NCBI GenBank assembly: GCA_043816005.1
Contig: JBDRIM010000024.1
Span: forward strand, 1-32,946
Reading direction: 5' to 3'
From: Candidatus Micrarchaeota archaeon
GTDB lineage: Archaea; Micrarchaeota; Micrarchaeia; Anstonellales; Bilamarchaeaceae
DNA length: 32,946 nt
Position numbers and translations under genes: made by a program. This document shows, piece by piece, positions 6,501 to 30,713 of this stretch. Every line of letters begins with the position of its first letter. Position 1 is the stretch's first letter. The notes under the pieces were generated by a model, which searched no databases, was not told where the DNA came from, and saw only the letters and a program-made list of their open reading frames with translations.

Positions 6501-6618
6501 ATGTTCCCCGCTTTTTAGTAAAAAGCGGTCAAAAACAATCTGTTGATTTTGCCTTCGGCAAAATGCGAAAGCATTTTCATCAACTAATTTTTGACCGACT
6601 TTTTTTCAAAAAGTCGGA
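6501..6618 (-). other. tRNA-Ala intron 2 (118 nt, non-canonical T-loop position 58/59)
   Basis: BHB-like: central helix GTTC/GAAC, bulges AA|T and AT|A. Removal restores the T-loop TTCAAAT. Confidence 0.85.
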
Positions 6619-6639
6619 TTGAACCCCCAGCCTTCCACA

Positions 6640-6679
6640 AATTGGAAGTTTTTAGTTAAGTTTTTTTCCAAAAAACTTA
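6640..6679 (-). other. tRNA-Ala intron 1 (40 nt, canonical 37/38)
   Basis: Strict BHB: central helix TTGG/CCAA, bulges CG|T and TT|T, outer stem AAGTTTTT/AAAAACTT. Confidence 0.9.
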
Positions 6680-6716
6680 CGCCAAGCGGATGCTCTACCG
6701 TTGAGCTACGTGCCCA

Positions 6717-6751
6717 TTGTTCTTTTTTAGAAAAAAAGAACCAAAAAACTG
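6717..6751 (-). repeat. T/A-tract hairpin element in the tRNA-Ala 5' leader
   Basis: 33/35 nt identical to the reverse complement of 30641-30675. The two differences form one compensatory pair. Confidence 0.8.
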
Positions 6752-6768
6752 GCTGTTTAAAAAAAAAA

Positions 6769-6993
6769 TTAAGATGGAGATATGAAAGTTACAGAGTCGC
6801 CTCGGAGCAATATTGTTCCTACACCTCTCTTCACTTCACCGTTGACCATCTGCTCTGCTTTTTCTAGAACGATGTTCATGTGTACGTCATATGCTATCAT
6901 CACACCTCGGAATTCGCTTCCACCTTTCATCCCGATGATGACTGTGTTGTTCAATGCGCTATTCAATACATCAAATGGTCTCTTTTCTGGCAT
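6769..6993 (-). CDS. Sm-like archaeal protein (Lsm/SmAP1)
   Basis: MPEKRPFDVLN..., Sm1 motif (FRGVMIAYDVHMNIVLEKAE) and Sm2 motif (LLRGDSV). Confidence 0.95.
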   Translation of the reverse strand: MPEKRPFDVLNSALNNTVIIGMKGGSEFRGVMIAYDVHMNIVLEKAEQMVNGEVKRGVGTILLRGDSVTFISPS

Positions 6994-7138
6994 AAAAATT
7001 TCACCTTCCTTTTTCATTAATAAAAATTTTTATTATTGATCGTTTCGACGATCAATGGCATAAAAATTTCACGCTCCTTTTTCTTTATCTTTGAGGGAAA
7101 TTTTTATAATTGAACGGTTTTCCGTTCAATGGCATAAA
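6988..7138. repeat. Two tandem double-hairpin units (68 and 74 nt) triplicating the Sm start region
   Basis: TGGCATAAA at 6988, 7056 and 7130. Each unit has an ATAAAAATTT/AAATTTTTAT stem and a 9-bp ATTGA..TCAAT hairpin. Confidence 0.85.
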
Positions 7139-7223
7139 TCCACCTCAAAAAATTAAAACTTATAGCATCTTTAATCCAGTTAATATTTAAATCTTCTACT
7201 TATATTTTGTTTCTGGTGCTATT

Positions 7224-7736
7224 ATGGTTAAATCAAAATCTGAGTTACCTATTGAAACTACTTACAAAAAAATGTCTGATAAACTATTTTCCATTGAAGC
7301 TCCTATGGAGTGGGAAGCTCGTTATTTAGATGTAGGTGGCGTTTCTCAGCACAATATGATAACATTTAGATCACCAAAAGACGTACAAAAAAATTCCACT
7401 TCCCCCAACTCATTATCTGTTCAATACTTCGATCGGGATGGTCCAATTGAATTAGATGCTCAGACGTATGCTAATAACGAAGCATCAATTAATCCTGGTG
7501 GTAAAACCCAAGCCAAAAAATCTGATTTCAATGGTTTACCCGGTGTTCTAGCAATAACTCAGGATTTACCATTTAATCTAAATGAAGGACAAGTGCTATG
7601 CACGGTCCAGTCAAGGTATCTCCAAAATCCAAAGAACCTCAAATTGTTCAGAATAAGTTTTTGGTATGATAAAACAAAAGAAAAAGAATTTGATCCTCTA
7701 TTTGATCACATGCTCAAGAGCTTTCAATTCAAATGA
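7224..7736 (+). CDS. PsbP/DcrB-like domain protein
   Basis: FSIEAPMEW near the N-terminus, FNGLPGV, and C-terminal FDHMLKSFQFK match the Mog1p/PsbP-like fold pattern. Confidence 0.55.
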   Translation: MVKSKSELPIETTYKKMSDKLFSIEAPMEWEARYLDVGGVSQHNMITFRSPKDVQKNSTSPNSLSVQYFDRDGPIELDAQTYANNEASINPGGKTQAKKSDFNGLPGVLAITQDLPFNLNEGQVLCTVQSRYLQNPKNLKLFRISFWYDKTKEKEFDPLFDHMLKSFQFK

Positions 7737-8210
7737 TCATTCGTTATTTACGATCGTCTCTATTTTTCCAGGTCCTTTGAATATTATTATTCTATCTGCA
7801 GTGTTGCGCAATGCAGCGCTGAATGCAACATCTGTTGCAATTATCATTGTTTTTTTGCCATATGCTTTTGCCTTAACTAACACTGGCCTGTAATCTGTAT
7901 CCCTTGTCATCAAAGCAATAATATCTATGTTTTTGTCAAGTACATATTCCATTGCTTCTATGGCCATCGTCACGTCGACGTCTCCGGTTGTTATTTCAGT
8001 CTCAAACCCTTGGTTTACCATTGCTTCAATAAGTTTATCAGATGCAAACTGATCAAGATAAATTTTTGAGATTCTGATGTTACCATATTTACTGATCTCT
8101 TTTCTAAGCTCATGAAGGTCTACATTAAATGCCTTGCGTAGTATGTTCGGACCATCGACCAAAAGTGCAATATCTAATCTCTCCTTTTTCCTTTTCAAAA
8201 ATTCAAACAT
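7737..8210 (-). CDS. NYN/PIN-fold protein (TIGR00288/LabA-like)
   Basis: IALLVDGPN, GDVDVTMAIEAM, TRDTDYRP and ALRNTAD motifs. Confidence 0.88.
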   Translation of the reverse strand: MFEFLKRKKERLDIALLVDGPNILRKAFNVDLHELRKEISKYGNIRISKIYLDQFASDKLIEAMVNQGFETEITTGDVDVTMAIEAMEYVLDKNIDIIALMTRDTDYRPVLVKAKAYGKKTMIIATDVAFSAALRNTADRIIIFKGPGKIETIVNNE

Positions 8211-8215
8211 TATAT

Positions 8216-8944
8216 CTACTCCAACGTAAAGTCAAAAAACTTCATCGCATTTTCTGCGGTTGCTTTTGCAACTTTTTCTTCGCTAATTTCTTTTACTTCG
8301 GCAATATACGCGATTGCTTCGCGAATGGACTCGGGAGTCCTGCCAACATAGGGTGAATCACTTTCCACCAGAAGTCTATTCAGCGGTATACTATTAATAA
8401 CTTTTCTACGGTCTTTCGAACGAAGATGCATTATGGAAATGTATCCTCCATTTTGCACGATTTCTTTAGCATTTTCTTCAGATCCTGAATAAAAATGCAT
8501 CAAAATTTTCATTCCGCTAATTTTTTTCATTATGTTCTCAACTGCATTTTTTGGAACTTCATTTTCATTCGGATTGTTCCTCGAGTGTATAACAACTGGC
8601 AATCTCATTTCATTTGCCAATGCAATCATCCTATCAAATGCCTCATTTTGTTTTTCTACATCTGATTTTGTTTTTGCCCATTTGTAATCCAAACCTATTT
8701 CGCCAATAGCATTTGGCTTATTTTGTCTGATAAATTCTATCCATTCGTCCAGTTTTCCAATGCCTTCTTTTATTGTTGTTTGGGGGGCTATGCCAAGTAC
8801 AAATGGGTAGTTTTTTGCTTTTGCTAGTTCTACTGCCTTTTTGTTACTGCCATGAGAATAAGCACAGACAACTGGATAAATGTCCGACGGAAGAACATAC
8901 TCTTTTTTCATTTCAAAGAGGTGGGTGTGTGAATCTACAAGCAT
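8216..8944 (-). CDS. tatD: TatD family hydrolase
   Basis: DSHTH, AIGEIGLDY, VIHSR, HFYSG and LLVESDSPY motifs. Confidence 0.93.
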   Translation of the reverse strand: MLVDSHTHLFEMKKEYVLPSDIYPVVCAYSHGSNKKAVELAKAKNYPFVLGIAPQTTIKEGIGKLDEWIEFIRQNKPNAIGEIGLDYKWAKTKSDVEKQNEAFDRMIALANEMRLPVVIHSRNNPNENEVPKNAVENIMKKISGMKILMHFYSGSEENAKEIVQNGGYISIMHLRSKDRRKVINSIPLNRLLVESDSPYVGRTPESIREAIAYIAEVKEISEEKVAKATAENAMKFFDFTLE

Positions 8945-9072
8945 AAATTTGTTAAGTGTCTTTAATTATAAAAACTTTCTAATATCATTCCTACATAAGT
9001 ATGAATCTGTAAAGGGGAAAGTTTGATTTAAAAACCCTAATGCTTTATAAGTTATACTTCACTCGAATTATC

Positions 9073-9183
9073 AGGTGTAAAAATGTTCGTGCATTTTTAC
9101 TTAATAAAAATTCGAAATTTTTATAAGTGTAAAAACGCTGATGTGTTTTTACTTAATTGAAATCTGAATTTCAATAAGGTGTA
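9073..9183 (+). repeat. Two tandem 52-nt double-hairpin units triplicating the aIF5A RBS
   Basis: GTGTA at 9075, 9127 and 9179. Each unit has a 10-bp GTAAAAA..TTTTTAC hairpin, TTA, and an 8-9-bp hairpin, with covarying pairs. Confidence 0.85.
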
Positions 9184-9186
9184 TTA

Positions 9187-9579
9187 ATGGTTGATAAAGT
9201 TTTTGCTATTGCAAAGGAATTAAGGGTAGGAAGATATGTGCTCATAGACGACATTCCATGTAAAGTAGTGGAGGTAGAAAGCTCAAAATCAGGCAAGCAT
9301 GGATCAGCTAAAATGAGGATAACAGGTATCGGCGTATTCGAAGGCCAGAAGAAAACTCTTCTAAGTCCAGGTGATGCTGATGTTGACATGCCTATTATCG
9401 ACCGTAAAAATGTTCAGATAATGTCAGTAAATGGTACAAATGCCCAGGTCATGGATCAGCAATCATATGAGGTTTATGATATGGAGATACCGCCAGAGCT
9501 TCTAAGTGCAGCCGCACCAGGTAAAGAAGCAGAAATTTTGGAATGTATGGGTAGAAAAAAAATGGAGAGGATTAAATGA
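9187..9579 (+). CDS. eif5a: Translation factor aIF5A
   Basis: Hypusination motif SKSGKHGSAK. Confidence 0.96.
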   Translation: MVDKVFAIAKELRVGRYVLIDDIPCKVVEVESSKSGKHGSAKMRITGIGVFEGQKKTLLSPGDADVDMPIIDRKNVQIMSVNGTNAQVMDQQSYEVYDMEIPPELLSAAAPGKEAEILECMGRKKMERIK

Positions 9580-9902
9580 ATGTTAATATTATTTCAAACA
9601 ACGACAATAAACTGTTAGACAGAAAGGAAGTAGAAGCAGAGGTAAGTTTCGAGGGCGCAACTCCTAAAAGAGTACAACTCAAGGAAGCTGTTGGCCAAAA
9701 GATCGGAAGTAATCCTGATTTAATGGTACTAAGAACTGTAACTAGCAACTTCGGAAGACATATGGTGAAAGTTAGAGTGCATTCATATTCTTCAAAAGAA
9801 ACATTGATTGCAACTGAACCTGTACATATAAAAGTAAGAGAAGGACTAATGGCAAAACCAGAGAAAAAGAAAAAAGCAGCGCCGTCAACTAAAAAGAAGT
9901 GA
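9576..9902 (+). CDS. rps24e: 30S ribosomal protein S24e
   Basis: [16 protein letters not shown] and ..FG.. motifs. Lies directly upstream of S27ae. Confidence 0.9.
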
Positions 9903-9907
9903 TTTTA

Positions 9908-10749: not shown

Positions 10750-10761
10750 GGTGTCTGTTAA

Positions 10762-11742
10762 ATGATAACACTAGGTATTGAATCAACTGCTCATACACTC
10801 TCAATAGGCATAGCAAAAGACAGTAAAATTTTATCTAATGTTATTGATACTTATTCAGGTGGAAATGAAGGTTTAATTCCAAGGAAAATGGCTGATCACC
10901 ATACTAATGTTTTTGCAAATGTATTATCTATTGCACTGAAAAATGCGAACATCGCTCTAGCGGATGTGGATTTGATTGCCTTTTCTCAAGGGCCTGGAAT
11001 AGGTGCTCCGCTTTCTGTTGGTGTAAGTGCAGCAAAATATTTGGCATTGTGTTATGATAAGAAAATTGTGGGTGTAAACCATTGTTATGCACACGTAAAA
11101 ATTAGCGAATTTTGTTGTAAAATGAAAGATCCACTAGTACTTTACCTTTCAGGTGGAAATAGCCAAATCCTTCTAAGAGAAGGGGAATTTTACCATATCA
11201 TTGGCGAAACACTTGACATTGGCATTGGAAATTTATTTGACAGTTTTGCACGTGCAATAAAAATGAAAAATGCACATGGTTCTGCACTTTCAAAACTTGC
11301 AGAAGGTGGAAAATATATTGAACTCCCTTACTCTGTAAAAGGGATGAATTTAGTGTTTTCTGGGTTGCTAACTGCAGCAGAAAGGGCAGCAAAAACACAT
11401 TCACCTAAAGATGTTGCATATTCTCTTATGGAAACTTCATTTGCAATGACTTGCGAAGTTACCGAAAGAGCACTCTTCTTAACAAAAAAGAAGCAATTGG
11501 TAGTTTGTGGGGGAGTTGCGCAGAATAAAAGGTTACAACAAATGCTCAAGACTATGTGTAAAGAAGATAGCATAAAATTTGCTGTTGGGCCAGACGAATA
11601 TAATCGTGATAATGGTGCTATGATTGCATATGCGGGTTGGTTGCAGTATAAAAAACACGGGGAAACAAAAATCGAAAAATGCGTTCCGATTACTAATTAC
11701 AGAATTGATAGAATGAAGGATGTGTTGGCAGGAAAGCTTTAA
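10762..11742 (+). CDS. kae1: tRNA t6A threonylcarbamoyltransferase Kae1
   Basis: LGIESTAHT, SQGPGIG, VNHCYAH, LSGGNSQ, GETLDIGIGN, GGVAQN and DNGAMIA motifs. Conserved context after rps24e-rps27ae. Confidence 0.95.
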   Translation: MITLGIESTAHTLSIGIAKDSKILSNVIDTYSGGNEGLIPRKMADHHTNVFANVLSIALKNANIALADVDLIAFSQGPGIGAPLSVGVSAAKYLALCYDKKIVGVNHCYAHVKISEFCCKMKDPLVLYLSGGNSQILLREGEFYHIIGETLDIGIGNLFDSFARAIKMKNAHGSALSKLAEGGKYIELPYSVKGMNLVFSGLLTAAERAAKTHSPKDVAYSLMETSFAMTCEVTERALFLTKKKQLVVCGGVAQNKRLQQMLKTMCKEDSIKFAVGPDEYNRDNGAMIAYAGWLQYKKHGETKIEKCVPITNYRIDRMKDVLAGKL

Positions 11743-11765: not shown

Positions 11766-12524
11766 ATGAACTTACTCAAACTCGGCGGTTCAATTATTAC
11801 AAATAAATCTGGCTGGAGAGAAGCCAATCTTTCGGCTATAAATGCGTTAGCCAAAGCAGTTGCAAAAGCATGGAAAAAATCAAGAGACTGGATAATTGTT
11901 CATGGTGCTGGTTCATTTGGTCATCCTCTTGTTGTCAAGTATAATCTTAATGACGGTATTACAAGCACCGAACAAAAACTCAGATTTGCAGAAACACACG
12001 AAGCATGTACGGAACTTTCTGTTCTGGTTTGTTCTGCACTTAATAATGAAGGTGTTCCAGCAATTCCAATTCCACCTGCAGTTGTAATTACTTCAAAAAA
12101 CAAAAGAATTCATTCTTTCAATACAAAATTAATCGAAGACTATTTGAAATCTGGATATGTTCCACTTCTATTCGGAGATATGGTTCCTGATTTAGAACTC
12201 GGTGGTTCTGTTTGTTCAGGTGACCAGATAATTTCTTATTTAGGAAAGGGTGCTGAGAAAATTGTTCTTGCAACTGATGTTGATGGTGTTCTTGACGATT
12301 CTGGAAAAGTTATTCCAGAAATATCAGAAGAAAATTTTGCAGAAATTTCTAAACATTTAAAGAATTCAACAAAAAAAGATGTTACTGGTGCCATGGCTGG
12401 AAAATTAAAAGAACTTCTTGAACTTGATACTCCTTCTTTTATTGTAAATGGATTAAAACCAGAAAGAGTGGAAGCATTAATGTTAGATAAAAAAGTGCTT
12501 TGTACTAAAGTTTCTAAGAGATAA
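11766..12524 (+). CDS. ipk: Isopentenyl phosphate kinase
   Basis: Amino-acid-kinase fold LKLGGSIITNK, IPK-specific HGAGSFGH, CSGDQ and DVTGAMAGK. Confidence 0.9.
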   Translation: MNLLKLGGSIITNKSGWREANLSAINALAKAVAKAWKKSRDWIIVHGAGSFGHPLVVKYNLNDGITSTEQKLRFAETHEACTELSVLVCSALNNEGVPAIPIPPAVVITSKNKRIHSFNTKLIEDYLKSGYVPLLFGDMVPDLELGGSVCSGDQIISYLGKGAEKIVLATDVDGVLDDSGKVIPEISEENFAEISKHLKNSTKKDVTGAMAGKLKELLELDTPSFIVNGLKPERVEALMLDKKVLCTKVSKR

Positions 12525-12544
12525 AAAGAACTCCAGTTCTTTTT
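12523..12544. terminator. Palindromic hairpin between convergent genes (bidirectional terminator-like)
   Basis: AAAAAGAAC-TCCA-GTTCTTTTT lies between the ipk and AcnX-small stop codons. Confidence 0.55.
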
Positions 12545-12942
12545 CAATCTCTTATAGTTATCTTTCCTTTTGTTCCATCCACTTCTATCATCATTCCATT
12601 TTTCAAAATTTGATGATTGTCTGCCTTATCTACCATGGGAATTTTGGATATAATAGCACCAACAACAATAATTGGCTCTGCAGAAACATTGATTATAGCG
12701 GCTGGGGCTTTTTTGTTTTTAGCCAATTGAAGCATAACGTAAGAACCAACTGTTGATCCTTTGCCATTTGGAAAAACCAAAATTTTTCCAACAATGGATT
12801 TGCCCTCAAGACAATGTCCTTTTTCTATTACAATGCCTGTTTCAGGGTCTACACCGCCCAAGAATCCAATTGGGTCTTTACTAACTAAAACCTCGCCAGA
12901 AACTTTTCCGCGGGCAATTGAACGTGCTCCCATCTCAAACAA
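12544..12942 (-). CDS. Phosphomevalonate dehydratase small subunit (AcnX swivel domain, DUF126)
   Basis: FLGGVDPETG, GKILVFPNGKGSTVGSY and KAPAAII motifs. Confidence 0.9.
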   Translation of the reverse strand: MFEMGARSIARGKVSGEVLVSKDPIGFLGGVDPETGIVIEKGHCLEGKSIVGKILVFPNGKGSTVGSYVMLQLAKNKKAPAAIINVSAEPIIVVGAIISKIPMVDKADNHQILKNGMMIEVDGTKGKITIRD

Positions 12943-12972
12943 TCTATCACCTAGTTAATTATAAAAGAAAAA

Positions 12973-14307
12973 TTAATAGTCCATATACTGTTGTAGTTCC
13001 CAAGCAGAGACCTGTGTGGCATATTCCGTACATTCTCTTCTTTTTGCAGTTATATATGCACCAAACAAATGTTCCCCAAGAACCTCTTTCCCAAGCGCAC
13101 TTTTTTCTAAATAAGTTATTGCTTCAAGAAGAGACCCAGGAACAACTTTTATTCCATTTACTGCTCGTCTCTCTGCTCCCATTTCAAATACATTTTCGTC
13201 CACTGGATCAGGAGCATTTAGTTTTCTTTGTATCCCATCAAGTCCTGCACGTAACATTGCAGCTAATGCAAAATATGGGTTGAAACTTGGATCAGGAACC
13301 CGTAGCTCAACTCGAACTGATTTTCTATCTGCAGTGTGTGGAACCCTAAGTAATGCTGATCTATTTGTTCGTCCCCAGCAAGCGTTTACTGGCGCTTCAT
13401 ATCCAGGAACAAGTCTTTTATATGAGTTTACAGTTGGGTTTGTTAGTGCACATAACCATCCTATATGTTCAAGTTGTCCTGCAATAAATTGAAGAGCAGT
13501 TTCAGAAAGGTTATGCACTCCTTTAGGATCTGCAAACATGTTTTTTCTACCTCTCCATAAACTTTGGTGAACATGTGCACCACTACCACTCACTCCTTCA
13601 ATTGGCTTTGGCATAAAAGTGGCAAAATATCCATGTTGTGCTGCAATTGCCCTCACAACCATCTTAAATGTCATGGCATTGTCAGCTGTTCGTAAAACAT
13701 CTGAATACCCAAAAGCTATTTCATGTTGGCTTTCAGCTACTTCAGTATGTATCATTTCTGCACGTATCCCAAATGCCTTAAGTGCAGCGGCTATTTCCAT
13801 TCGCATATTCCACCCAGGGCTTCCAGCATCGTTACTAAAGTAAGTTCCATTTCCAGCAGATTTAACAATCTGTTTTCCATCCTCACCTATTTTAAATAAG
13901 AAAAATTCAAGTTCTGGCCCAGTGTTATATACTAATCCTAAATTAGCTGCAATTACAATTGCTCTTTTTAGAACGTTTCTTGGATCTTCTAAAGATGGTT
14001 GTCCATCCATACCATGTACATCACATATCAATCGCGCAGTCTTTTTTTCTGGATCAGTTACCCATGGGAGTAATGCATACGTTTTTTCATCTGGCGCAAG
14101 CACTCTGTCACTTTCACAAATGCGAGCATACCCCTTTACTGAAGAGCCATCAAAACCGACTCCGTTCCTTAGTGCCGTATTCACTCTATCAAACGGTACA
14201 ATACCTGAGTTAACTCCACCTTGTATATTTGCAAATTGCAAACATACAAATTTTACTTTGTCTGCTTTCATTCGTCGTACTAGTTCTGGTTGTCTCAGTT
14301 TTGCCAT
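12973..14307 (-). CDS. glnA: Glutamine synthetase type I
   Basis: GFDGSSV, GPELEFFLF, HTEVAESQHEI, ATFMPKP, GSGAHVHQSL, NSYKRLVPGYEAP, NRSALLRVP and ELRVPDPSFNPY motifs. Confidence 0.95.
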   Translation of the reverse strand: MAKLRQPELVRRMKADKVKFVCLQFANIQGGVNSGIVPFDRVNTALRNGVGFDGSSVKGYARICESDRVLAPDEKTYALLPWVTDPEKKTARLICDVHGMDGQPSLEDPRNVLKRAIVIAANLGLVYNTGPELEFFLFKIGEDGKQIVKSAGNGTYFSNDAGSPGWNMRMEIAAALKAFGIRAEMIHTEVAESQHEIAFGYSDVLRTADNAMTFKMVVRAIAAQHGYFATFMPKPIEGVSGSGAHVHQSLWRGRKNMFADPKGVHNLSETALQFIAGQLEHIGWLCALTNPTVNSYKRLVPGYEAPVNACWGRTNRSALLRVPHTADRKSVRVELRVPDPSFNPYFALAAMLRAGLDGIQRKLNAPDPVDENVFEMGAERRAVNGIKVVPGSLLEAITYLEKSALGKEVLGEHLFGAYITAKRRECTEYATQVSAWELQQYMDY

Positions 14308-14376
14308 TTCTCCGCCTCTTAATTCTACTCTGATAACAAATGATTATAAACAATATTATTTTGTGTTTTTTTATTC

Positions 14377-14934
14377 TTAATACAACAACGATAAAACTTG
14401 CATTAGTGGATTCACTGCGAAAACTAGGTTTAGAATAAACCATATAATTGCTATTTTATCCTTATTGAAAAAATAATCAATAAATGAATAGAATGCAACA
14501 AGCAAACCACCAAATCCCAAAAACAATCCAAAGTAAAGAGGATATATCTTAGCATCAGTTGCCATACCCGCAGCAATAAGTATTAGTCCAATAGTGCAAA
14601 CAAACGTTATTTTATCATTTTTATAGTTTTTTGTTAGTACGAGGTATCCCACTCCAACAACTGCAGCACCTAGCAATACAATATATTTGATAATGCTACC
14701 CACGTCTATAAAAGCTAAGCTCGAGCCTAGTGTAATAATAATTTGAAGAGTAAATAACATTTCTTGTTTGTTTATGCGAGCTACTGCAGTAAGTACGATG
14801 GCCCCAATAAGGAACAGTACTTTTTGCTGTAAAGATGCTGGTTCAGAAAATACACCTACAAGAAGAAGTAACATAGCAACTAATCCGATATAGAAAACCA
14901 AATCATTATTTTTCGATGATTTTTTTACTGCCAT
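14377..14934 (-). CDS. Hypothetical multi-pass membrane protein
   Basis: About 6-7 hydrophobic segments. Co-oriented downstream of the AcnX large subunit. Confidence 0.75.
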   Translation of the reverse strand: MAVKKSSKNNDLVFYIGLVAMLLLLVGVFSEPASLQQKVLFLIGAIVLTAVARINKQEMLFTLQIIITLGSSLAFIDVGSIIKYIVLLGAAVVGVGYLVLTKNYKNDKITFVCTIGLILIAAGMATDAKIYPLYFGLFLGFGGLLVAFYSFIDYFFNKDKIAIIWFILNLVFAVNPLMQVLSLLY

Positions 14935-14948
14935 ATTTCACATCTCAG

Positions 14949-16121
14949 TTATCTGTACAAAATATCTTCAGCATCTCCAAATGCAATTTTTTGTTTACAA
15001 AGATTTGGCAAATAAGATGCTGCCTTTCCAGAATTCGTTCCTGTTATATGGTAACCCATCTGCTCAAGAGGACAAACCACCATACAGGTGTCTGCAACAA
15101 TTCTTCCACCAGCTGCAAGAATTGCTTTTTCATAGCCAAATTTTACTGCCATTTCTTTTGTTTTTCTTGCAGTACAAATCCAAAATTCGCAGGTTGGTTT
15201 TTTCTTGCTGACCATCTCTGAAATCTGTTTTATTTCATCTAATGAAGCATGTGGGCAACCAATAGTTACTAAATCTGGTTTTAGTTTCATATCCAACTCG
15301 TCTTTTGTCTTTTTTATTTCATCATCAGTTACAATCAACCTTTCTGCATCATTACTAACATTCCATTCTGGTGTTATCCCTTTAATAAAAAATAATGGTA
15401 CTGAGCCTGTTGCTGCCATCGAGGCACCAAGTACTTTCAACTGTTCTTCTTTTGCAGTTTTAATTCCTTCAAATGCAGGATAGTTTGTTTTTGCCAATTT
15501 TCCAATGTACGAACCAAGTGCACTGAAATCCGCAACTGTTTTTAGTTCACATTTAACATCAACATGAAGCGTTGCCACTCTATTCTCATCTTTATGCAAT
15601 CCATATTCAGGAGTTACGCCGCAAATTGCTCCTGCCAAAGCAGAAGGTCCTCCTTCTCTATTTGTTTTTGCACCTAAAACAGAATTACAAAATGCAACCG
15701 CACTTGATTCTGCCCATGCAACATGCTCTCCTTCCTTTGGTCGTATTCCAATGAAATACGGGGTGCACGTACATGTTTTCATAATCCCCATTTTTCCATA
15801 AGCATCAAGAACTTCAAGTTGTTTTTTGGCAAATTCTTTTGGTATTTTCATCTCTTCCCATTGTTCAGCATCCATTCCAGCTGGATTTAAGAAAGTCGGT
15901 ATTTTTACCTTGGCACCTTTTTTTACTAAATCTGTAAGATATTCCAATCCCGCCTGGCCAATTGTCTTGAATGAAACTCCAGAAATCTGGGCACTAGTTA
16001 TATTTACCATTTTTTCTGCACTATAAATCTTTCCTAACGCAACCAAAATTTCCATTGATTGCTTGGCTGCATCGCCAAATTCTCCATCGTACATTTGTTG
16101 TTCATGTTTTGTTAATTGCAT
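14949..16121 (-). CDS. Phosphomevalonate dehydratase large subunit (AcnX catalytic, DUF521)
   Basis: AQISGVSFK, TCTCTPY, AWAESSAV, GAKTNREGG, GCPH, DTCMVV and TNSGKAA motifs, including the Fe-S cysteines. Confidence 0.92.
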   Translation of the reverse strand: MQLTKHEQQMYDGEFGDAAKQSMEILVALGKIYSAEKMVNITSAQISGVSFKTIGQAGLEYLTDLVKKGAKVKIPTFLNPAGMDAEQWEEMKIPKEFAKKQLEVLDAYGKMGIMKTCTCTPYFIGIRPKEGEHVAWAESSAVAFCNSVLGAKTNREGGPSALAGAICGVTPEYGLHKDENRVATLHVDVKCELKTVADFSALGSYIGKLAKTNYPAFEGIKTAKEEQLKVLGASMAATGSVPLFFIKGITPEWNVSNDAERLIVTDDEIKKTKDELDMKLKPDLVTIGCPHASLDEIKQISEMVSKKKPTCEFWICTARKTKEMAVKFGYEKAILAAGGRIVADTCMVVCPLEQMGYHITGTNSGKAASYLPNLCKQKIAFGDAEDILYR

Positions 16122-16125
16122 GCAA

Positions 16126-16362
16126 TCATTCCTTTCTAGTCCACATGAAAATTCCGAAAATAATTATCACTATACCAAAGACTATAGACCAAAATGATAT
16201 GTCACTAGTAGTTTTGATAAAATTACTTAAAATATTAGAAAAAGATCCTTCTGAACTTTTGAAAAAGGTTGCAGTAACAATATTGACTGCGCCCATAAGC
16301 AATAGACCAAAGACTGAGATTAAAAGTCCCCAGAAAAATGCATGTCCTGCGTGCTTTTTCAT
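16126..16362 (-). CDS. Small two-TM membrane protein
   Basis: Two hydrophobic helices. GAGGT SD upstream. Tightly packed between the UbiD-like and AcnX-L genes. Confidence 0.65.
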   Translation of the reverse strand: MKKHAGHAFFWGLLISVFGLLLMGAVNIVTATFFKSSEGSFSNILSNFIKTTSDISFWSIVFGIVIIIFGIFMWTRKE

Positions 16363-16372
16363 CTAATATACC

Positions 16373-17671
16373 TCAGATATATTCCGTTAGTTCAATTTTT
16401 TTCCATTTTGCTTTTTCGAAATTTTTCCCATGGGCAACCAATGGTTTAGTGGCATCAATTCCCATCTTTGTTGTTTCGTAAGTATGTGGATCAGCACTTG
16501 GATCAAGTGAAGAACCTTTTTGTTTTATTTTTATTACTATGTCTTTATCTGCCTGTACTCTTGTAGCAATTGCCCATTCAACTTCCATTGGATTATCAAC
16601 ATCAATATCATCATCAACGATAATAACGTGTTTGAGTGATTTATGGCCAGCAAATGCAGCTTCAATTGCTTTTTTGCCATCTTCTTCGCTTTTCTTTTTT
16701 ATTGAAACAACTGCATGGAGCCATGAGCATCCGCCAGGCGTAATGTTTACTCTTTTACATTCACACACTTTGGTTACTTCAGTAAAAATTGTTGGTTCTC
16801 TTGGCATTCCCATCAAAACTTTATGTTCCAATCCACCAGGAGGTAAAACATGCCAGAGTGCATCATTTCTATGATACATTTTAGTTATCTTCATCACTTG
16901 CTGTTTTCTTATAACATCATAAGTTTCTGTTAAATCAACAAATGGTCCTTCGTCATGCATTTCTTTTGTAATTCTTCCTTCAAATGCAAATTCTGCATCT
17001 GCAGGCACTTCTATTCCATTGCTTAATTTAACTGTACTAAAAGGCATCAGAGTATTTGCAAATTCTAGTTCATCCTGGCCAATTTGAACTGATGTTGCTG
17101 CAGATAAAAGAACATTGATTGGTGCACCCACTACAATTGCAACATTCAATTCTCCACCAGCCCTATCAATAAATTCCTGAAGGTGGCGTTTCAATATTCT
17201 GACAACAACTTTATTTTTGTCAATAACCATCATTCTATGGAAAGAAACATTTCTACCGTATTCTTTATCATGTGCAATAACTATTGCTGAAGATAAATAA
17301 GGCCCACCATCATTTTTAAAATGAACAGGAATAGGTAATTTATTAAGGTCAATTTCTGTTGTACTATTCTCCAAAATTGGTCCGCTTTCAATTAGTTTTG
17401 GTTTTGTTGGATTTGTAAGTGCATTGACAAGTTTTGGTATAAGTTCTTCTTTCGTAATTCCAAGATATTCACAAACCAATTCACGGGTTGAAAAAACGTT
17501 TCCAACTGCTTTGAATTTTGATCCTTCAACTTGTGGAGCATAAACAACATTACCATCAAGTGCATACATTATCCCGGCAAGGTCAAGTTGTTTTAAAACT
17601 GGTTTTTTAATTTCCTTTACTATCCCACTTTTTCTTAATTGTTCTATAAATTCACGAAAAGAAGTTGCCAT
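16373..17671 (-). CDS. UbiD family decarboxylase, probable anhydromevalonate phosphate decarboxylase
   Basis: DGGPYL, RNVSFHRM, EGPFVDLT, KHVIIVDDDID, EWAIATR, GSSLDPS and KMGIDAT motifs. Clustered with AcnX L/S, UbiX and IPK. Confidence 0.88.
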   Translation of the reverse strand: MATSFREFIEQLRKSGIVKEIKKPVLKQLDLAGIMYALDGNVVYAPQVEGSKFKAVGNVFSTRELVCEYLGITKEELIPKLVNALTNPTKPKLIESGPILENSTTEIDLNKLPIPVHFKNDGGPYLSSAIVIAHDKEYGRNVSFHRMMVIDKNKVVVRILKRHLQEFIDRAGGELNVAIVVGAPINVLLSAATSVQIGQDELEFANTLMPFSTVKLSNGIEVPADAEFAFEGRITKEMHDEGPFVDLTETYDVIRKQQVMKITKMYHRNDALWHVLPPGGLEHKVLMGMPREPTIFTEVTKVCECKRVNITPGGCSWLHAVVSIKKKSEEDGKKAIEAAFAGHKSLKHVIIVDDDIDVDNPMEVEWAIATRVQADKDIVIKIKQKGSSLDPSADPHTYETTKMGIDATKPLVAHGKNFEKAKWKKIELTEYI

Positions 17672-17716
17672 AAAGATACCTATATATTTTATGTTTAAAT
17701 GTTTTTGGTTCTTCTA

Positions 17717-18742
17717 TTAAAAACTACGTACACAATTTTCCATATCAAGAAGAACAATTTTTGTTTCGCCAGTTTTTTTACTTTTTTGTATGTATATTGA
17801 ACCATCACCATATAATCTAAAATGTGGGATTGCATTGTCTAATGCTCTCATATCTCTATCGTAAGCCTCTATGATCAAATCGGGTATGAGTCGTCTCTGA
17901 CCTTGAACACATGTGAGTGTTGCATTACCGCCCTTAGTGCAATCAGTCATTACTATTCCAGATGATAATCTTTCACCCAAAACCGCAAATACTTCTGGTA
18001 CAAATATGGTTTCGAGTGTCAGATCAGATGCTGTTCTATATAATTCTGCTTCTTTTTCCATTAATTTTCTGAGTCCCACTCCTGTTGATTCACTTATGGC
18101 ATTAAGCAGTACTGTATTTCTTCCTTCAAACCTTACTCTATAGGCATATCTTTTTCCACCATGATCTAGATACTGTGCTGTTCCCCTGTCTATTTTTTTT
18201 CTTTCTTCCGCTGGTAGTTTGGCTAAGAAGTTATCCAATGTCTGATATGCATACGAGCCTAATATATCTGTTTTTTGCAGAATTTCGCATAAATTTTCTG
18301 GTAGTTTTATCACGTGTAATTTTCCATCACCAATGTTTAGTGTGAATGTGAACTGAAAATTTCTTCTTATGTGCGCACTTCGTAAGGCTTTTTGGGCCAT
18401 TTTATTATCAGTAAAATCTCCAAGCAAACTTGCTATTACCTGTCTTCGTGCATCTTCTATTGCACTTGGTGTTGTTTCAATATTTAATAAGTTGACGAGG
18501 GCACATATAGTTTCAACATCTCTGTCAAGTAAGATGCCTTTTAATTCCTCATGTACTCTGTACAGTTCAATTGATTTATCTTGCAAAGTTTTTCCAGAAT
18601 TAGTTGGTCTTAAGGTTATTATTCTCGGATCAGCTAGTCTGTGATTAGCAATTCCTTCTAATGCAACATCTGCTATTTCTGCTCTAAGCGATCTTCTGTC
18701 TGCACCTCTCGTATGTCCCCCTCTTGTTAACCTAGCAGACAT
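17717..18742 (-). CDS. Hypothetical protein with possible C-terminal kinase-like fold
   Basis: Probable start MSARLTRGG at 18742. C-terminal segments YLDHGGKRYAYRV, KEAELY, VPEVF, GDGSIYI and IVLLDME occur in kinase-subdomain order. Confidence 0.5.
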   Translation of the reverse strand: MSARLTRGGHTRGADRRSLRAEIADVALEGIANHRLADPRIITLRPTNSGKTLQDKSIELYRVHEELKGILLDRDVETICALVNLLNIETTPSAIEDARRQVIASLLGDFTDNKMAQKALRSAHIRRNFQFTFTLNIGDGKLHVIKLPENLCEILQKTDILGSYAYQTLDNFLAKLPAEERKKIDRGTAQYLDHGGKRYAYRVRFEGRNTVLLNAISESTGVGLRKLMEKEAELYRTASDLTLETIFVPEVFAVLGERLSSGIVMTDCTKGGNATLTCVQGQRRLIPDLIIEAYDRDMRALDNAIPHFRLYGDGSIYIQKSKKTGETKIVLLDMENCVRSF

Positions 18743-18782
18743 AATTCTTTTGTGTATGTATATGTTTAAATGGTGTACTGTT

Positions 18783-19316
18783 TTATTGTTTCCATCTCTT
18801 CCCGATACTGTGTTCCAAACCAAGCTGATCAAGAACTCGAGCAACAACAAAATCTACTATATCCTCAACTGTTTTTGGCTTTCCATAAAATCCTGGGGTT
18901 GCAGGCAAAATTATTCCTCCAGCCAAAGTCACCAATTCCATATTCTTTATTGTTATAAGAGAATATGGTGTTTCTCTAACAACTAAAATCAGTTTCTTTC
19001 TTTCTTTGAGCACAACTTCGCATGCTCGCGTGATTAGTGTATCTCCGACGCCATTGGCTACTTCGCCAAGTGTTTTTAATGAACAGGGAACAACAACAAC
19101 TGCATCTGGTGGATTAGAACCAGAAGCATAAGGACAGGTAAAATCTTTTTCGTCGTAATCCGCTTTTGGCAATTCTATTTCTTCTGCTTCTGCAACTTTT
19201 TTTGCACCAGAACTAACAACTATCTTAACATCTGCTGTAATGTTTTTCAGTACTTCAACTAAACGTTTTCCATATTGAAGACCTGAAGCGCCAGTGATGG
19301 CTACGAGAATTCGCAT
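18783..19316 (-). CDS. ubiX: Flavin prenyltransferase UbiX
   Basis: ILVAITGASG, ASGS, PCSLKTL, LITRACEVVLKER, VRETP and PGFY motifs. Confidence 0.95.
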   Translation of the reverse strand: MRILVAITGASGLQYGKRLVEVLKNITADVKIVVSSGAKKVAEAEEIELPKADYDEKDFTCPYASGSNPPDAVVVVPCSLKTLGEVANGVGDTLITRACEVVLKERKKLILVVRETPYSLITIKNMELVTLAGGIILPATPGFYGKPKTVEDIVDFVVARVLDQLGLEHSIGKRWKQ

Positions 19317-19377
19317 AATCCTATTGAGTCCCAACAGAGTTTTAAATATTCCAGGTTATTACAAACTTGGTGAAATC

Positions 19378-23110: not shown

Positions 23111-23111
23111 T

Positions 23112-25558: not shown

Positions 25559-25588
25559 GCTTAATAATTTTCAAAACTAATTTTTCAC

Positions 25589-26665: not shown

Positions 26666-26696
26666 GTTTAAATGTTGATTCTGAGTTAATTAGTCT

Positions 26697-27341
26697 GTGA
26701 ACAATTTATCTAAAATTGATTGGGTTCTTAGACAAATGCACGAGTCTGCAGTAAAACGGAATGCACCAGTTCTTTATGCAGAGCATGAAACAAGAAACGA
26801 TCCATTCATGATTCTTGTATTTACTATGCTTTCAGCACGTACCAAGGACGTAACTACAATAAAAGTTGTTAATCGTTTATTTGCAAAGGCTAATACCCCA
26901 AAGAAAATCATTGCACTAGGGTCAAAAAAATTGGAAAAATTGTTGTACGGAGTTGGTTTTTACCGTACAAAAACAAAAAATCTTCTCGCCACCTGTACGT
27001 TACTTAATTCTGGCAAAATTCCACAAACTCTTAATGAGTTGCTTAAACTTCCAGGTGTTGGACGAAAAACCGCAAACATTGTTCTAGCTAGAGCATTTGG
27101 TCAAAACACACTTGGTGTTGATGTACATGTTCATAGAATCTCAAACAGACTTGGTCTTGTGAAAACCAAAAAACCAGAAGAAACTGAACGAGAATTATTG
27201 AAAATAATTCCATCCAAATATGTACGGTTACTTAACCAAAAATTTGTTGCTTTTGGTCAGACTGTTTGTTTACCAAGAAATCCGGATTGTATCAATTGTC
27301 CACTATCAAATAGTTGTCCAAAATTAGGAATTAAAAAATAA
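26697..27341 (+). CDS. nth: Endonuclease III
   Basis: HhH LLKLPGVGRKTAN, VDVHVHRI, and Fe-S motif C-x6-C-x2-C-x5-C. Confidence 0.93.
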   Translation: MNNLSKIDWVLRQMHESAVKRNAPVLYAEHETRNDPFMILVFTMLSARTKDVTTIKVVNRLFAKANTPKKIIALGSKKLEKLLYGVGFYRTKTKNLLATCTLLNSGKIPQTLNELLKLPGVGRKTANIVLARAFGQNTLGVDVHVHRISNRLGLVKTKKPEETERELLKIIPSKYVRLLNQKFVAFGQTVCLPRNPDCINCPLSNSCPKLGIKK

Positions 27342-27347
27342 AAAAAA

Positions 27348-28262
27348 TTATTTAGATTTTTTACTTGGCAATGGTGTTATCCCAGCTGCATCAGAGATTA
27401 TTGCAGATATGTCTGTACCCTCAGGAATCACATATTTTGTATTGGTACTCAATGCGTTTTCAGCCACTTGCAATTTTTTTAATGTTTGCGCATCTCCTTT
27501 GAAGTATTTCTGAGCAGCCTCATTAACAAGCTGAATTGCCTTTGCTTCTGCATGAGCTTTCATCTCAACTGCATGTGCTTCTGCCTGGGCTTGCAATTCT
27601 ATTGATTTTGCATAACCTTCAGCAACTTTAACTGCAGATCTTCTCTCACCATCTGCTCTTGTTTCTACAGCCGAAGCAAGATCAACTGCCGCAATCTTTT
27701 CATTTTCTGCTTTAACAACGTTGTTCATTGCCTGTTGAACATCTTGTGGCGGATCTATTCTCTGGAGTTCCACTCTAATAATATTCACACCCCATAAATT
27801 AGTTTCTTTGTCAAGTTCTTGTTCTACTTCCTGGTTGATTCTTTGTCTGTTTTCATTCGCTTCTGTGAGTGTCATTTTACCCATTATGGCTCTTAATGTT
27901 GTTTGTGCAAGAGAAGGAATAGCAGTTCTATAATTGTCTATTTGGTAAACTGCTTTCATTACATCATCAATTTTGTAATATACAATTGCATCAACTACTG
28001 CATTAAGGTTGTCTCTTGTAATAACTGTTTGTTGATCAACATCCACTCTCATCTCTGTTGTTGGTACCTTTATTACCTTTTCAACAAATGGTATTATTAT
28101 CAAAAGTCCTGGTTCAGCAGTTCTGCTAAATTTACCGAATCTTTCTACAAGAGTCTTTTCAATAGGCCTTACAACCTTTATCGCAGCAGCCAAAAAAATT
28201 AGTGCTATTATAGCTAAAAGCGGTACACAAAGCCAACCAAATACAAGTGGATCAAATGCCAT
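27348..28262 (-). CDS. SPFH/band 7 (stomatin-like, QmcA) membrane protein
   Basis: N-terminal TM helix, VERFGKF, PGLLIIIPFVE, QTVITRDN, AQTTLR and WGVNIIRVEL motifs. Confidence 0.92.
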   Translation of the reverse strand: MAFDPLVFGWLCVPLLAIIALIFLAAAIKVVRPIEKTLVERFGKFSRTAEPGLLIIIPFVEKVIKVPTTEMRVDVDQQTVITRDNLNAVVDAIVYYKIDDVMKAVYQIDNYRTAIPSLAQTTLRAIMGKMTLTEANENRQRINQEVEQELDKETNLWGVNIIRVELQRIDPPQDVQQAMNNVVKAENEKIAAVDLASAVETRADGERRSAVKVAEGYAKSIELQAQAEAHAVEMKAHAEAKAIQLVNEAAQKYFKGDAQTLKKLQVAENALSTNTKYVIPEGTDISAIISDAAGITPLPSKKSK

Positions 28263-28283
28263 ACATTGTTTATGCAAACTTGT

Positions 28284-29186
28284 TTATTTAATTATTCTGG
28301 TTGGGAACGAATCAAAGTTATGTTTTTTGAGATTTGTTGCCAATGCTATTGCATGATTTTCATCCCTTGCCAATGCAATGCAGCATCCGCCACCACCACC
28401 ACCAGTGACTTTGGTACCTAATGCACCATCAACCATGGCAATTTCATTTATTTCATCGTTTTTTTCATTCGAAACTCCAATCTCAGATAAAAGTCTTTGA
28501 TTGGTATTCATCAATCTTCCTACTTCCTCAAGGTCCCCTTCTTCTATTGCTTTTTTTGCATTGATCTCCAAATCAATATATTCATCCATAAGCTGTGAAA
28601 ATTCTCTTTTATCATTATCCTTAAACTTTTGTACTCGTTCTATCATTTTTGTTGTTTCACTATATTTTCCGCTAAATGTTATGACAATATCTAATGGCGC
28701 ACGCATTCTAATAAAATCAAATTGGCTTTCGGCCATTGTTTTTCCTCTTCGGTATTCAACAATTCCACCATAGGTTGCTACTGTGTTATCTACACCGCTT
28801 GGATTTCCATGGAATGCCATCTCACCATCATATGCATGTTGGTTTACTATATCATTTTTCAATCTTACTTTCTTTTCTTTTGCAAATGCTTTGACAAGTG
28901 CAACGCAGAATGCAGCAGATGAACCAAGTCCGCCATAGGTTGGCAAATCTCCACTCAATCTAACTTGATATTTTTTCTTCATCCCCATACTTTTCAAAAC
29001 TGCAGAAATTCCAGCAACACTCAATTCTTCAACTACTTTGAGTTCTGTAATTATTTTGTTTTCCTTAGCTTCAACTACATCAACAATAGCACTGTTTGAA
29101 ATTCCTCCTGCAATTGCCGGTGCACCATGAACTACGAAGTGTTCTCCAAACAATATTGTCTTTCCTCTGCCGATTCCTCTTGCCAT
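28284..29186 (-). CDS. mvk: Mevalonate kinase
   Basis: GKTILFGEHFVVHG, GLGSSAA, FHGNPSGVD and KVTGGGGGG (GHMP kinase, MVK type). Confidence 0.92.
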   Translation of the reverse strand: MARGIGRGKTILFGEHFVVHGAPAIAGGISNSAIVDVVEAKENKIITELKVVEELSVAGISAVLKSMGMKKKYQVRLSGDLPTYGGLGSSAAFCVALVKAFAKEKKVRLKNDIVNQHAYDGEMAFHGNPSGVDNTVATYGGIVEYRRGKTMAESQFDFIRMRAPLDIVITFSGKYSETTKMIERVQKFKDNDKREFSQLMDEYIDLEINAKKAIEEGDLEEVGRLMNTNQRLLSEIGVSNEKNDEINEIAMVDGALGTKVTGGGGGGCCIALARDENHAIALATNLKKHNFDSFPTRIIK

Positions 29187-29187
29187 A

Positions 29188-29448
29188 TCAACCCTTCTTT
29201 TCTATTAATTTTGTTTTACATTTTTTACAGGTGCCATCATACATACATCCTGCCAGAATATATCCTTTTTTTCGCTGGTCTGTTACCCAGCTATTCGTGA
29301 GCTTACGAAAAAGTTCTTTTTTATTTTTTATGATGTCACTGGTATCTCCATCTATTCCATTTTTTTTCATCTGTTCTTCTACTATGAGTTCCTCACTAAG
29401 TTTTCCGAAGATGTAATGTACTCTACATTTTGTACAATAATCCTTCAT
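29188..29448 (-). CDS. Small hypothetical protein with two CxxC motifs
   Basis: CTKC...CKKC. Fills the gap between neighbours with tight spacing. Confidence 0.6.
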   Translation of the reverse strand: MKDYCTKCRVHYIFGKLSEELIVEEQMKKNGIDGDTSDIIKNKKELFRKLTNSWVTDQRKKGYILAGCMYDGTCKKCKTKLIEKKG

Positions 29449-29454
29449 CTTTCA

Positions 29455-30231
29455 TCACTTCGGTTTCCTACCCTTTACTTTCGGTGGTTTTATATCCGGG
29501 TGGGCATCGGTCAACATGCCTGGACTTGCATATGGTTTGAATCCGAGATTTTCGAAAACTTTACAAACAAGATAAACATCATCTGGTCCGTTTGTTAGTT
29601 TTGTTTCAAGCTCTTTTAGTGCTGCTGCAAGATTATTATAAGATTTTCTCTTTCCTTTTACAATTGAATCAACCAACACGTCATTTTTATTTACTCCTGC
29701 AAAATCAAATGCTTTGTTCACTATAGTGTGATTTACACCTGATAATATTCCTGAAACTTCATAATCCTGGACTTTAGTTAATCCTAGTTTTTTTACTGCA
29801 ACCCATTCTTTGTATTTTCCCATGAATCCTATGAAATCTTCAATTTTTTCATCTGATGGTTTTGGTGTATTGGTTGGCATTATTTTGAATTGCACTCCTG
29901 CTTGGGTTAGCAATCTATTGAACAAATAACACTCAGCAACACAGACTAGTTTTGGATCATTTACATATTTTCCTAGTTCGTCTCTAAGTTTATTTGAAGT
30001 TTCAATAAAATTTACAATTGCCTTTAGACCAGTCCCTTTGAGTTTTGCAATTTCATCTATTTTTTTTGTATCAATTCCAGAAAATTCAAATGCTGGTTGT
30101 TCTATTTTTGAACTTACATATGCAAGTACTTGTGCCACTTCTTTTGGTTCTTTTCCTCTAAGATCAAAACAAATACCAAGTTTGAATCTTTTATATTCAC
30201 CAGTAAAAATTACTTCGTCTCCACCGAACAT
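29455..30231 (-). CDS. DUF2666-like protein (apparent tandem domain)
   Basis: IGFMGKYKEWVAVKKL..EVSGILSGVNHTI..KAF and C-terminal HPDIKPPKVKGRKPK. The N-terminal half (VIFTGEYKRF..EVAQVLAYV) parallels the C-terminal half. Confidence 0.65.
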   Translation of the reverse strand: MFGGDEVIFTGEYKRFKLGICFDLRGKEPKEVAQVLAYVSSKIEQPAFEFSGIDTKKIDEIAKLKGTGLKAIVNFIETSNKLRDELGKYVNDPKLVCVAECYLFNRLLTQAGVQFKIMPTNTPKPSDEKIEDFIGFMGKYKEWVAVKKLGLTKVQDYEVSGILSGVNHTIVNKAFDFAGVNKNDVLVDSIVKGKRKSYNNLAAALKELETKLTNGPDDVYLVCKVFENLGFKPYASPGMLTDAHPDIKPPKVKGRKPK

Positions 30232-30456
30232 TTAATCATCCTCCAAGCATTTTATTAGTTGTAAATTAAATAAGTTCGCAAAGATCAATAATAAAAAGCT
30301 ATTTGGCCATTTTCTTTAGTTGTTTTGATAAGTTATTGTAAGAAAACATGGTGTGCCTCGCGAGCCTTTATTTTTTTAAAGACGAGCGAACCAAAGTTTG
30401 AAGTAGGAATACGACGAACTTATATTAATGATCTTTTCATTAGTATTATCCAACAC

Positions 30457-30713
30457 GCCCCTGTAGCGCAGAGGTAGCGCGCGTCCTTGGTACCAACTTT
30501 TTGGAAACGCGATTGTTGCGATGCAACAATGCGCCCATTGTTCGATTCGAACAATTGGGAGTTGGATCAAAACTGGTTGTTTGAAAACCCTTTCGGGTTT
30601 TCGGTGAAAACCATTTTTGCGTAAGCAAAAATTAGCAATTCAGTTTTTTGGTCCTTTTTTTCTAAAAAAGGACAAAAAGGACGAGGTCACGAGTTCAATT
30701 CTCGTCGGGGGCT
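30457..30713 (+). tRNA. tRNA-Thr(GGT) with one long intron (exons 30457-30492, 30678-30713)
   Basis: Spliced GCCCCTGTAGCGCAGAGGTAGCGCGCGTCCTTGGTA|AGGACGAGGTCACGAGTTCAATTCTCGTCGGGGGCT forms a complete cloverleaf. Confidence 0.93.
30493..30677 (+). other. tRNA-Thr intron (185 nt, 37/38), multi-hairpin with a relaxed splice motif
   Basis: Central helix TTGG/ACAA has one mismatch. The intron is built of at least five hairpins plus an enclosing stem. Confidence 0.8.

Follow-up and report, generated by a model that had tools for sequence, protein, structure and literature searches.

Two transfer RNA (tRNA) genes of a Micrarchaeota archaeon carry long introns that look alike but interrupt the genes at different positions, 58/59 in tRNA-Ala(GGC) and 37/38 in tRNA-Thr(GGU), which raises the question of what these introns are and how one sequence reached two sites. 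Both genes are located in the 32,946-nucleotide stretch analyzed here (the window; Candidatus Micrarchaeota archaeon, assembly GCA_043816005.1, contig JBDRIM010000024.1, positions 1 to 32,946), which is contig C24 of a metagenome-assembled, 86%-complete genome of 1.26 Mb with 5.5% contamination, designated G000. Our analysis indicates, with a probability of about 0.5, that both introns belong to a non-coding, modular repeat made of hairpins, which occupies tRNA introns across one Micrarchaeota clade, is likely excised by the splicing endonuclease, and has likely spread by recombination between its copies, with no dedicated transposase.

Spliced alignment gave exactly the intron boundaries claimed in the preliminary description of this DNA (Table 1). 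The local alignment score between the Ala and Thr introns was 61, compared to 32.1 ± 5.5 for shuffled sequences, and was reached in none of 1000 shuffles; the likeness thus exceeds that of AT-rich controls, and the earlier claim that the introns are copies of one structured element was borne out. Their folding z-scores were −6.6 and −6.8. The element opens with a left hairpin, in which a variable GC stem and a T-tract precede a short loop and an A-tract. Then come CAAAA, a long stem, the hairpin with the TTTC loop, and the second hairpin; TTTTG and a right hairpin close the element. This is the module order first proposed, except that the inner hairpins of the Ala copy are not separate: both use the same ATTTT, the T-tract having been counted twice, and the spacer between them is missing, so that they are alternatives of each other. 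In G000, introns of about 100–240 nt are built from such exchangeable hairpin modules, which are also present outside introns, and many deleted and nested forms of the element were found. The end hairpins occur in many alleles but are nearly always perfect (107 perfect and 9 imperfect).

A metagenome-assembled, partly contaminated genome and AT-rich sequence might suggest an assembly artefact or a chance likeness among AT-rich hairpins. Such an explanation is barely credible in view of the 1000 shuffles and of three shuffles of the whole G000 genome, which contained no end module. Moreover, the copies differ in sequence and were found in 17 genomes, and a contig of sequencing run X1 repeats positions 6552–6803 with one gap, though X1 may be the source sample.

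In the inner helices, 94.4% of cells were paired, and two-sided changes numbered 16 compared to 4.5 in shuffles (0/500), a control that leaves kinship out of account; the paired positions thus covary, as had been expected. Two conserved G-U pairs are on the transcribed strand. RNAalifold recovered the two inner hairpins only, the variable ends misaligning. These features would suit a four-hairpin core maintained as a functional RNA, e.g., a stable excised circle, and spread by a benefit such as the shielding of tRNA genes from integrating elements. We consider this improbable. G-U is not favored over A-C where the long stem varies (8 G-U and 9 A-C); therefore, selection on RNA structure is not established for the long stem, and compensatory changes can arise from palindrome repair alone. 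The element was below the threshold in 23 of the 40 genomes of the genus, it has the many nested and deleted forms mentioned above, and no Rfam family matches it.

The family was searched for with a sequence-only profile of 15 copies, 86 candidates being scored per genome, so that the counts are lower bounds. At least 99 matches at E 1e-8 or better were obtained in 17 of the 40 genus genomes (1 to 27 per carrier genome, 9 in G000). Repeated scanning of the retrieved DNA gave 106 matches, or 105 distinct copies after the two halves of one copy were joined; the prediction of further copies was thus confirmed. No match at E 1e-7 was found in 134 genomes outside the genus, where 24 candidates per genome were scored and the short end modules were not sought. 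On the endonuclease tree, which covers 30 of the 40 genomes, the element was present in 14 of the 16 members of one clade (support 99/93) and in 1 of the 14 genomes outside it; two further carrier genomes are absent from the tree. One strict core pattern had 0 matches in viral contigs, which gave no support to a viral carrier, and 12 in metagenome contigs; 9 of these lie in tRNA introns, and the other 3 lack ends and were put down to chance. A literature search, with subscription papers and preprint supplements outside its reach, retrieved no publication on this repeat in Micrarchaeota.

The 106 matches were placed by script (75) or by eye (31), two script calls being corrected. tRNA introns of about 35 tRNA species contained 100 of the 105 copies, at five positions: 37/38 (66 copies), 15/16 (16), 59/60 (9), 53/54 (7), and 58/59 (2). 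The other five were found in a 23S rRNA gene with its own splice motif (one), in the spacer between tRNA-Pro and rpsB (three; the rpsB label was read by eye, in three genomes), and at the 3′ end of the signal recognition particle (SRP) RNA (one). By the best-scoring strand, 72 of 75 copies were in transcript sense, the remaining three being weak and near-symmetric; by a strand-diagnostic motif, 77 of the 105 were sense only, 2 antisense only, and 26 undecided. Of 66 left hairpins, 52 had their start within 0–2 bases of the 5′ splice site. The G000 catalogue comprised 58 introns in 34 tRNA genes, at least 26 of them with an end hairpin (a few of the boundaries are uncertain). Of this genome's 41 end modules, whose contexts were completed by eye, tRNA introns held 31; another 5 lay next to tRNA genes, 4 in intergenic DNA elsewhere, and 1 inside a gene. 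The 31 lie in approximately 8 kb of tRNA genes and the 4 in approximately 96 kb of other non-coding DNA, i.e., an approximately 90-fold difference in density, which is a poor fit to the earlier idea of tRNA introns as a safe haven left by random insertion and selection.

The filled sites were compared with their counterparts in related genomes. A survey of Ala(GGC) in 25 other genus genomes, with a query biased to intron-poor genes, revealed the 58/59 intron in none of them and unrelated 59/60 introns in two. In the closest relatives, G031 and G043 (98/98 on the endonuclease tree), the Ala exons are identical and site 58/59 is empty. A contig of run X4 (another sample, depth 2.8) matched positions 6619–6719 except for two differences and a gap. 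It therefore contains the same 37/38 intron, and it ran straight into the last Ala exon; this one contig is a precise empty 58/59 allele, relative to which the filled site has no target-site duplication. Since the site is empty in the relatives and in X4, parsimony points to the gain of the Ala intron without target duplication. The nearest sister of the Ala copy is in Ser(GGA) 59/60 of G043, a site that is empty in G000. At Thr(GGU) 37/38, examined in 15 genus genomes, the site was empty in 3, while 7 had a left-end-only intron, 1 a right-type, 2 a two-ended, and 2 an intron of another kind. It is a hot site with turnover of contents and, being mostly occupied in relatives, one where the element more likely replaced earlier contents. 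Empty alleles thus exist at both sites, as anticipated, and the suggestion that the element creates introns agrees with the gain at Ala 58/59 and is less likely for Thr 37/38, where some intron is mostly present in the relatives.

A short, non-coding, multi-copy element with empty and filled sites may be a non-autonomous transposon similar to MITEs (miniature inverted-repeat transposable elements) or repetitive extragenic palindromic (REP) sequences, mobilized in trans by a transposase of the DDE or HUH type and retained only where it can be spliced. Its size, inverted hairpin ends, strong folding, copy number of 0 to 27 per genome, and few copies outside introns agree with this explanation; the assemblies are also incomplete, and the searches covered four transposase families only. 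We nevertheless regard it as unlikely. No target-site duplication was found in 43 of 57 copies, and the longest was 3 nt, the same as in shuffles. The ends are alike in pattern, yet their terminal 5-mers vary (the commonest in 7/57), left and right termini are complementary in 2/57, the sequences before the left end have no motif in common, and no fixed terminal tetranucleotide of the REP type or of REP doublets forming hairpins (REPINs) is present on the element. The 90-fold density in tRNA genes and the single orientation are not expected of such a transposon either. Thus, the MITE-like nature with inverted ends that had been proposed was not supported, and a strict MITE was rejected on the lack of target-site duplication and on the variable ends; the searches for partner enzymes, of four transposase families in incomplete assemblies, also gave none with the ends of the element.

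Regarding partner enzymes, Y1 transposase was not found in G000; it was encoded in 9 of the 40 genomes (4 of 17 carriers and 5 of 23 others) with ends of its own, contrary to the expectation of HUH/Y1 transposases bounded by the element's ends. None of the 12 Y1 loci was flanked by the repeat, the sole strong match being located in a neighboring tRNA intron. A search for the DDE families PF13358, PF01609, and PF12762 in five copy-rich, incomplete genomes, other families not being searched, revealed two genes, both in G000 and with no module near them. Reverse transcriptase was encoded in 10 of the 40 genomes (2 of 17 carriers and 8 of 23 others) and in none of the four relatives richest in copies; it was rejected as a partner for lack of association with the element. 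Of the claim of a non-autonomous mobile element, mobility therefore stands (gain, loss, and copying between sites), whereas movement by a transposase was not supported, since no Y1, DDE, or reverse transcriptase gene was seen to track the element in these incomplete assemblies.

Several other loci were noted in the course of these searches. The reverse transcriptase gene of G000 (C41:53391-53813, L030) is split over two frames and, by its family label, presumably resembles enzymes of diversity-generating retroelements. On contig C80, a left module and a right one at a distance of 7.2 kb (C80:2328 and C80:9540) were rejected as an autonomous copy, as they enclose housekeeping genes; each adjoins the same 16-base word. 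The Y1 transposase genes L106 and L112 (G017) directly adjoin tRNA genes.

Evidence on movement was obtained by comparing interiors with ends. Among 62 parsable copies, seven pairs had interiors at least 85% alike; five of them were at different sites of the same genome, and none was orthologous. Both ends differed in three of the five same-genome pairs and the right end alone in a fourth, while neither end differed in the fifth. For example, the interiors of Asp 37/38 and Pro 53/54 of G031 were 96% alike with different ends, and those of Glu 37/38 and Gln 59/60 of G038 were 94% alike, with an identical stretch of more than 100 bases and different right ends. Left-end alleles, on the other hand, follow the site: they were common to 13 of 49 orthologous pairs, compared to 94 of 1587 unrelated and 19 of 255 same-genome pairs. 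In one metagenome a three-way mosaic was found, in which L238 combines the ends of L236 with an exact 51-nt insert common only to L245. The 3′ tail fits its own host at 37/38, with 3.47 of 4 helix pairs compared to 2.63 with shuffled hosts (0/2000; 49 introns). Near-identical interiors between different, host-fitted ends of the same genome thus point to gene conversion in the frame of the splice motif.

Gene conversion is efficient in archaea, and palindromes can be repaired by template switching. Recombination between copies would involve conversion tracts between the common sub-terminal CAAAA and TTTTG repeats, exchanging interiors and at times inner hairpin arms, while the bases fitted to the host splice motif would remain. 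The end hairpins may be kept perfect by palindrome repair or by selection to close the splice motif. For the first seeding of an empty site such as Ala 58/59, our best guess is that an intron at the same position was copied via the conserved T-loop flanks.

Several observations weigh against conversion between copies. Chimeric end hairpins, the intermediates it predicts, are scarce, given the 107 perfect hairpins and 9 imperfect ones. Inverted interiors, to be expected at times from near-inverted ends, are nearly absent, as the strand counts above demonstrate. Mean interior identity within genomes (0.54) did not exceed that between orthologous sites (0.64). In G000, the introns at Lys 15/16 and Leu 59/60 are 88% identical over their whole length, ends included, which equally fits moves of the whole element. 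Splice boundaries were called with a motif bonus, which inflates the host-fit test at sites other than 37/38, and the genus genomes share kinship, so that the family counts are not independent. Finally, exon homology cannot shift an intron between positions and conversion of interiors needs pre-existing ends, so that conversion alone does not account for the first seeding; nor did the 86%-complete assembly reveal a donor of the Ala copy.

Some of these features would be accounted for by transposition at the RNA level, in which the endonuclease and the ligase RtcB would re-ligate excised or circular introns into other broken pre-tRNAs, with subsequent back-copying to DNA. Almost all copies are in transcript sense and placed exactly at splice sites, the gain at Ala 58/59 was precise and without duplication, free half elements abut the ends of tRNA and SRP RNA, and one whole-intron pair is alike across positions. 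We consider this route possible but doubtful: the closest sister copies have different ends or tails, other introns contain end modules and the second inner hairpin in either orientation, and the reverse transcriptase counts given above run counter to it. Also unlikely, in our estimation, is an extended form of this route, i.e., a transposase-free selfish element pre-adapted as an intron, which would make spliced introns de novo, travel as RNA via the endonuclease and RtcB, and be rewritten into DNA. In such an element, the end hairpin would close the splice motif and the purine-rich right arm would pair with pyrimidines of the tRNA loop; if real, it would be the first vehicle of tRNA intron gain to be identified in archaea.

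Whichever way the repeat spreads, its copies would depend on the splicing enzymes of the host. A three-unit splicing endonuclease of 391 aa, orthologous to PDB 4FZ2 (E 1.9e-133), was encoded in G000 at C64:47321-48493, and the endonuclease was found in 38 of the 40 genus genomes. The RtcB gene was present in five of five genomes, including G000. Thus, G000 contains genes for the broad-specificity endonuclease and the ligase that bulge-helix-bulge tRNA introns require. According to the available text of PMC3239211, bulge-helix-bulge motifs at 37/38 and 59/60, strict as well as relaxed, are cleaved in vitro by the 4FZ2-type enzyme. From this established biochemistry, we infer that pre-tRNAs with element copies are spliced by the endonuclease and RtcB. 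A second, short open reading frame similar to splicing endonuclease was found apart from the three-unit enzyme (G000 C5:14421-14663, L028). The RtcB match of G043 (C6:673872-676544) is split inside a 910-aa open frame in an intein-like pattern.

The comparisons below rest on the portions of the cited sources that were available. The closest known system is that of the transposed tRNA introns of Thermoproteales (PMC4090602, PMC4033280, bioRxiv 10.64898/2026.10.13.758758); as in that type, related introns of the present family are found within a genome in several tRNA genes and at several positions. The Micrarchaeota element is longer, modular, and also present outside introns, and its interiors and ends move separately. 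Whole introns at least 80% identical across tRNA types make up 28.3% in Thermoproteales (bioRxiv 10.64898/2026.10.13.758758), whereas in G000 they are rare (one pair, or 2 of 58 introns, by global identity; the identity methods differ). Ser and Leu tRNAs, reported in PMC4390854 as having no known translocatable intron, carry 15 of the 105 copies. ARMAN-2 (Ca. Micrarchaeum acidiphilum; PMC3239211, PDB 4FZ2) belongs to the same phylum and has an orthologous endonuclease of the epsilon2 type and the same intron positions, including 53/54 and 59/60, with relaxed motifs that were cut in vitro; its assayed introns, however, were of 25 and 13 nt, and the available text mentions no common repeat family. 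Prokaryotic MITEs (PMC3184786) are likewise short and non-coding, with inverted ends, a stable fold, and filled and empty sites, but for the element no target-site duplication, conserved terminal repeat, or matching transposase was found, and it is strongly biased to tRNA introns and one orientation. REP sequences, bacterial interspersed mosaic elements (BIMEs), and REPINs with REP-associated tyrosine transposases (RAYTs; PMC3733652) are similarly modular palindromes, single, paired, or nested, restricted to lineages and oriented to transcription; unlike them, the element has no GTAG or CGTC end tag and no repeat-flanked Y1 gene, and tRNA introns are its main home. It is a longer, modular variant of the known spreading endonuclease-spliced tRNA introns, for which recombination ranks first as the mechanism, then RNA transfer, then a transposase.

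The mechanism of intron transposition was called unknown in a 2014 review (PMC4090602, available part), and no general pathway by which introns arrive is reported in the accessible portion of a 2026 study of Asgard archaea (bioRxiv 10.64898/2026.10.13.758758). The present family supplies what earlier intron sets lack, namely more than 100 copies that can be traced, alleles that are precisely empty or filled, and mosaics separating interior from ends; it is a testable handle on the arrival of archaeal tRNA introns, by which the competing routes can be distinguished. Element-filled introns also let tRNA genes escape the standard finders: with default settings, ARAGORN found neither of the two tRNA genes of the window, and Rfam missed both as well.

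Table 1. Features of the tRNA-Ala and tRNA-Thr genes of the window and of their element copies
Feature	Position	Strand	Remarks
tRNA-Ala(GGC) gene	6487..6715	-	exons 6715-6680, 6639-6619, 6500-6487; spliced-alignment script; exon sequence identical in G043 and G031
Ala 37/38 intron, 40 nt	6640..6679	-	short form with left-end hairpin only; central helix 4/4
Ala 58/59 intron, 118 nt	6501..6618	-	one base, element, 4-nt splice-helix partner, two bulge bases; missing in relatives
Ala copy, left end hairpin	6595..6617	-	CCGAC allele; begins at intron base 2
Ala copy, inner hairpins	6546..6577	-	TTTC-loop 6577-6560, second 6564-6546, overlap in ATTTT; from sequence
Ala copy, right end hairpin	6508..6528	-	CCGC allele
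GAAC of bulge-helix-bulge motif	6503..6506	-	pairing with exon GTTC (53-56)
Free half element	6719..6763	+	one end hairpin (6719-6741, toward tRNA) and tail; directly upstream of tRNA-Ala 5′ end
tRNA-Thr(GGU) gene	30457..30712	+	exons 30457-30492, 30678-30712; spliced-alignment script; anticodon fixed by intron-less orthologues G008 and G025
Thr 37/38 intron, 185 nt	30493..30677	+	full element; central helix 3/4, relaxed motif
Thr copy, left end hairpin	30493..30565	+	CCAAC allele; two-hairpin cassette (30509-30559, about 50 nt) nested in A-tract
Thr copy, inner hairpins	30584..30632	+	TTTC-loop 30584-30601, second 30613-30632
Thr copy, right end hairpin	30651..30673	+	GTCC allele; last bases and A tail are splice-helix partner

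In silico removal of the introns yielded complete tRNA-Ala(GGC) and tRNA-Thr(GGU) by ARAGORN. This program accepted all seven registers tried for the T-loop intron of the Ala gene, among which only the register of Table 1 reproduces the T-loop of the relatives; its splice motif has a central helix with 4/4 pairs. ARAGORN assigned the Thr gene to Phe(AAA), which the intron-less orthologues show to be a wrong register. According to the tRNA scan, each of the two is the sole gene found for its anticodon in the assembly; therefore, both probably need to be spliced. A hammerhead-like word within the Ala copy was not conserved. Upstream of tRNA-Ala, the X4 contig carries another allele of the free half element at the same spot. 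Between tRNA-Ala and the SMC gene, two more short hairpins of other types were found (6425-6482), the one nearer the tRNA having look-alikes in many genus genomes. The two-hairpin cassette of the Thr copy recurs in G000 (C5:23193-23272, C6, and C34), in the A- or T-tract of end hairpins and in either orientation, and may constitute another small mobile unit inside the first.

Elsewhere in G000, tRNA-His has an end module upstream, after which the opening bases of this tRNA gene stand as a direct copy (C80:20310-20404). Two similar tRNA genes, probably Phe (C8:7085-7249 and C66:1772-1892), contain closely spaced anticodon-arm introns that were not resolved by the aligner. Atypical intron-less tRNA genes at C15:1198-1270 and C36:1150-1620, several of them clustered on C36, possibly stem from a mobile element or a contaminating contig. 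In G024, a genome of another family, a hairpin-rich intron of 180 nt and unrelated sequence is located at Thr(GGU) 37/38 (L019:1541-1720), which suggests parallel repeat families elsewhere in the order. Within the window, the Kae1/TsaD gene contains a stretch that weakly matches the second inner hairpin (11065-11113, E 0.0016), either by chance or as an in-frame remnant. Genes for aconitase X subunits, UbiD, a flavoprotein, an amino-acid-kinase-family protein, and a GHMP kinase are encoded at 11766-19334 and 28284-29186; we take them to be the set expected for the archaeal mevalonate pathway.

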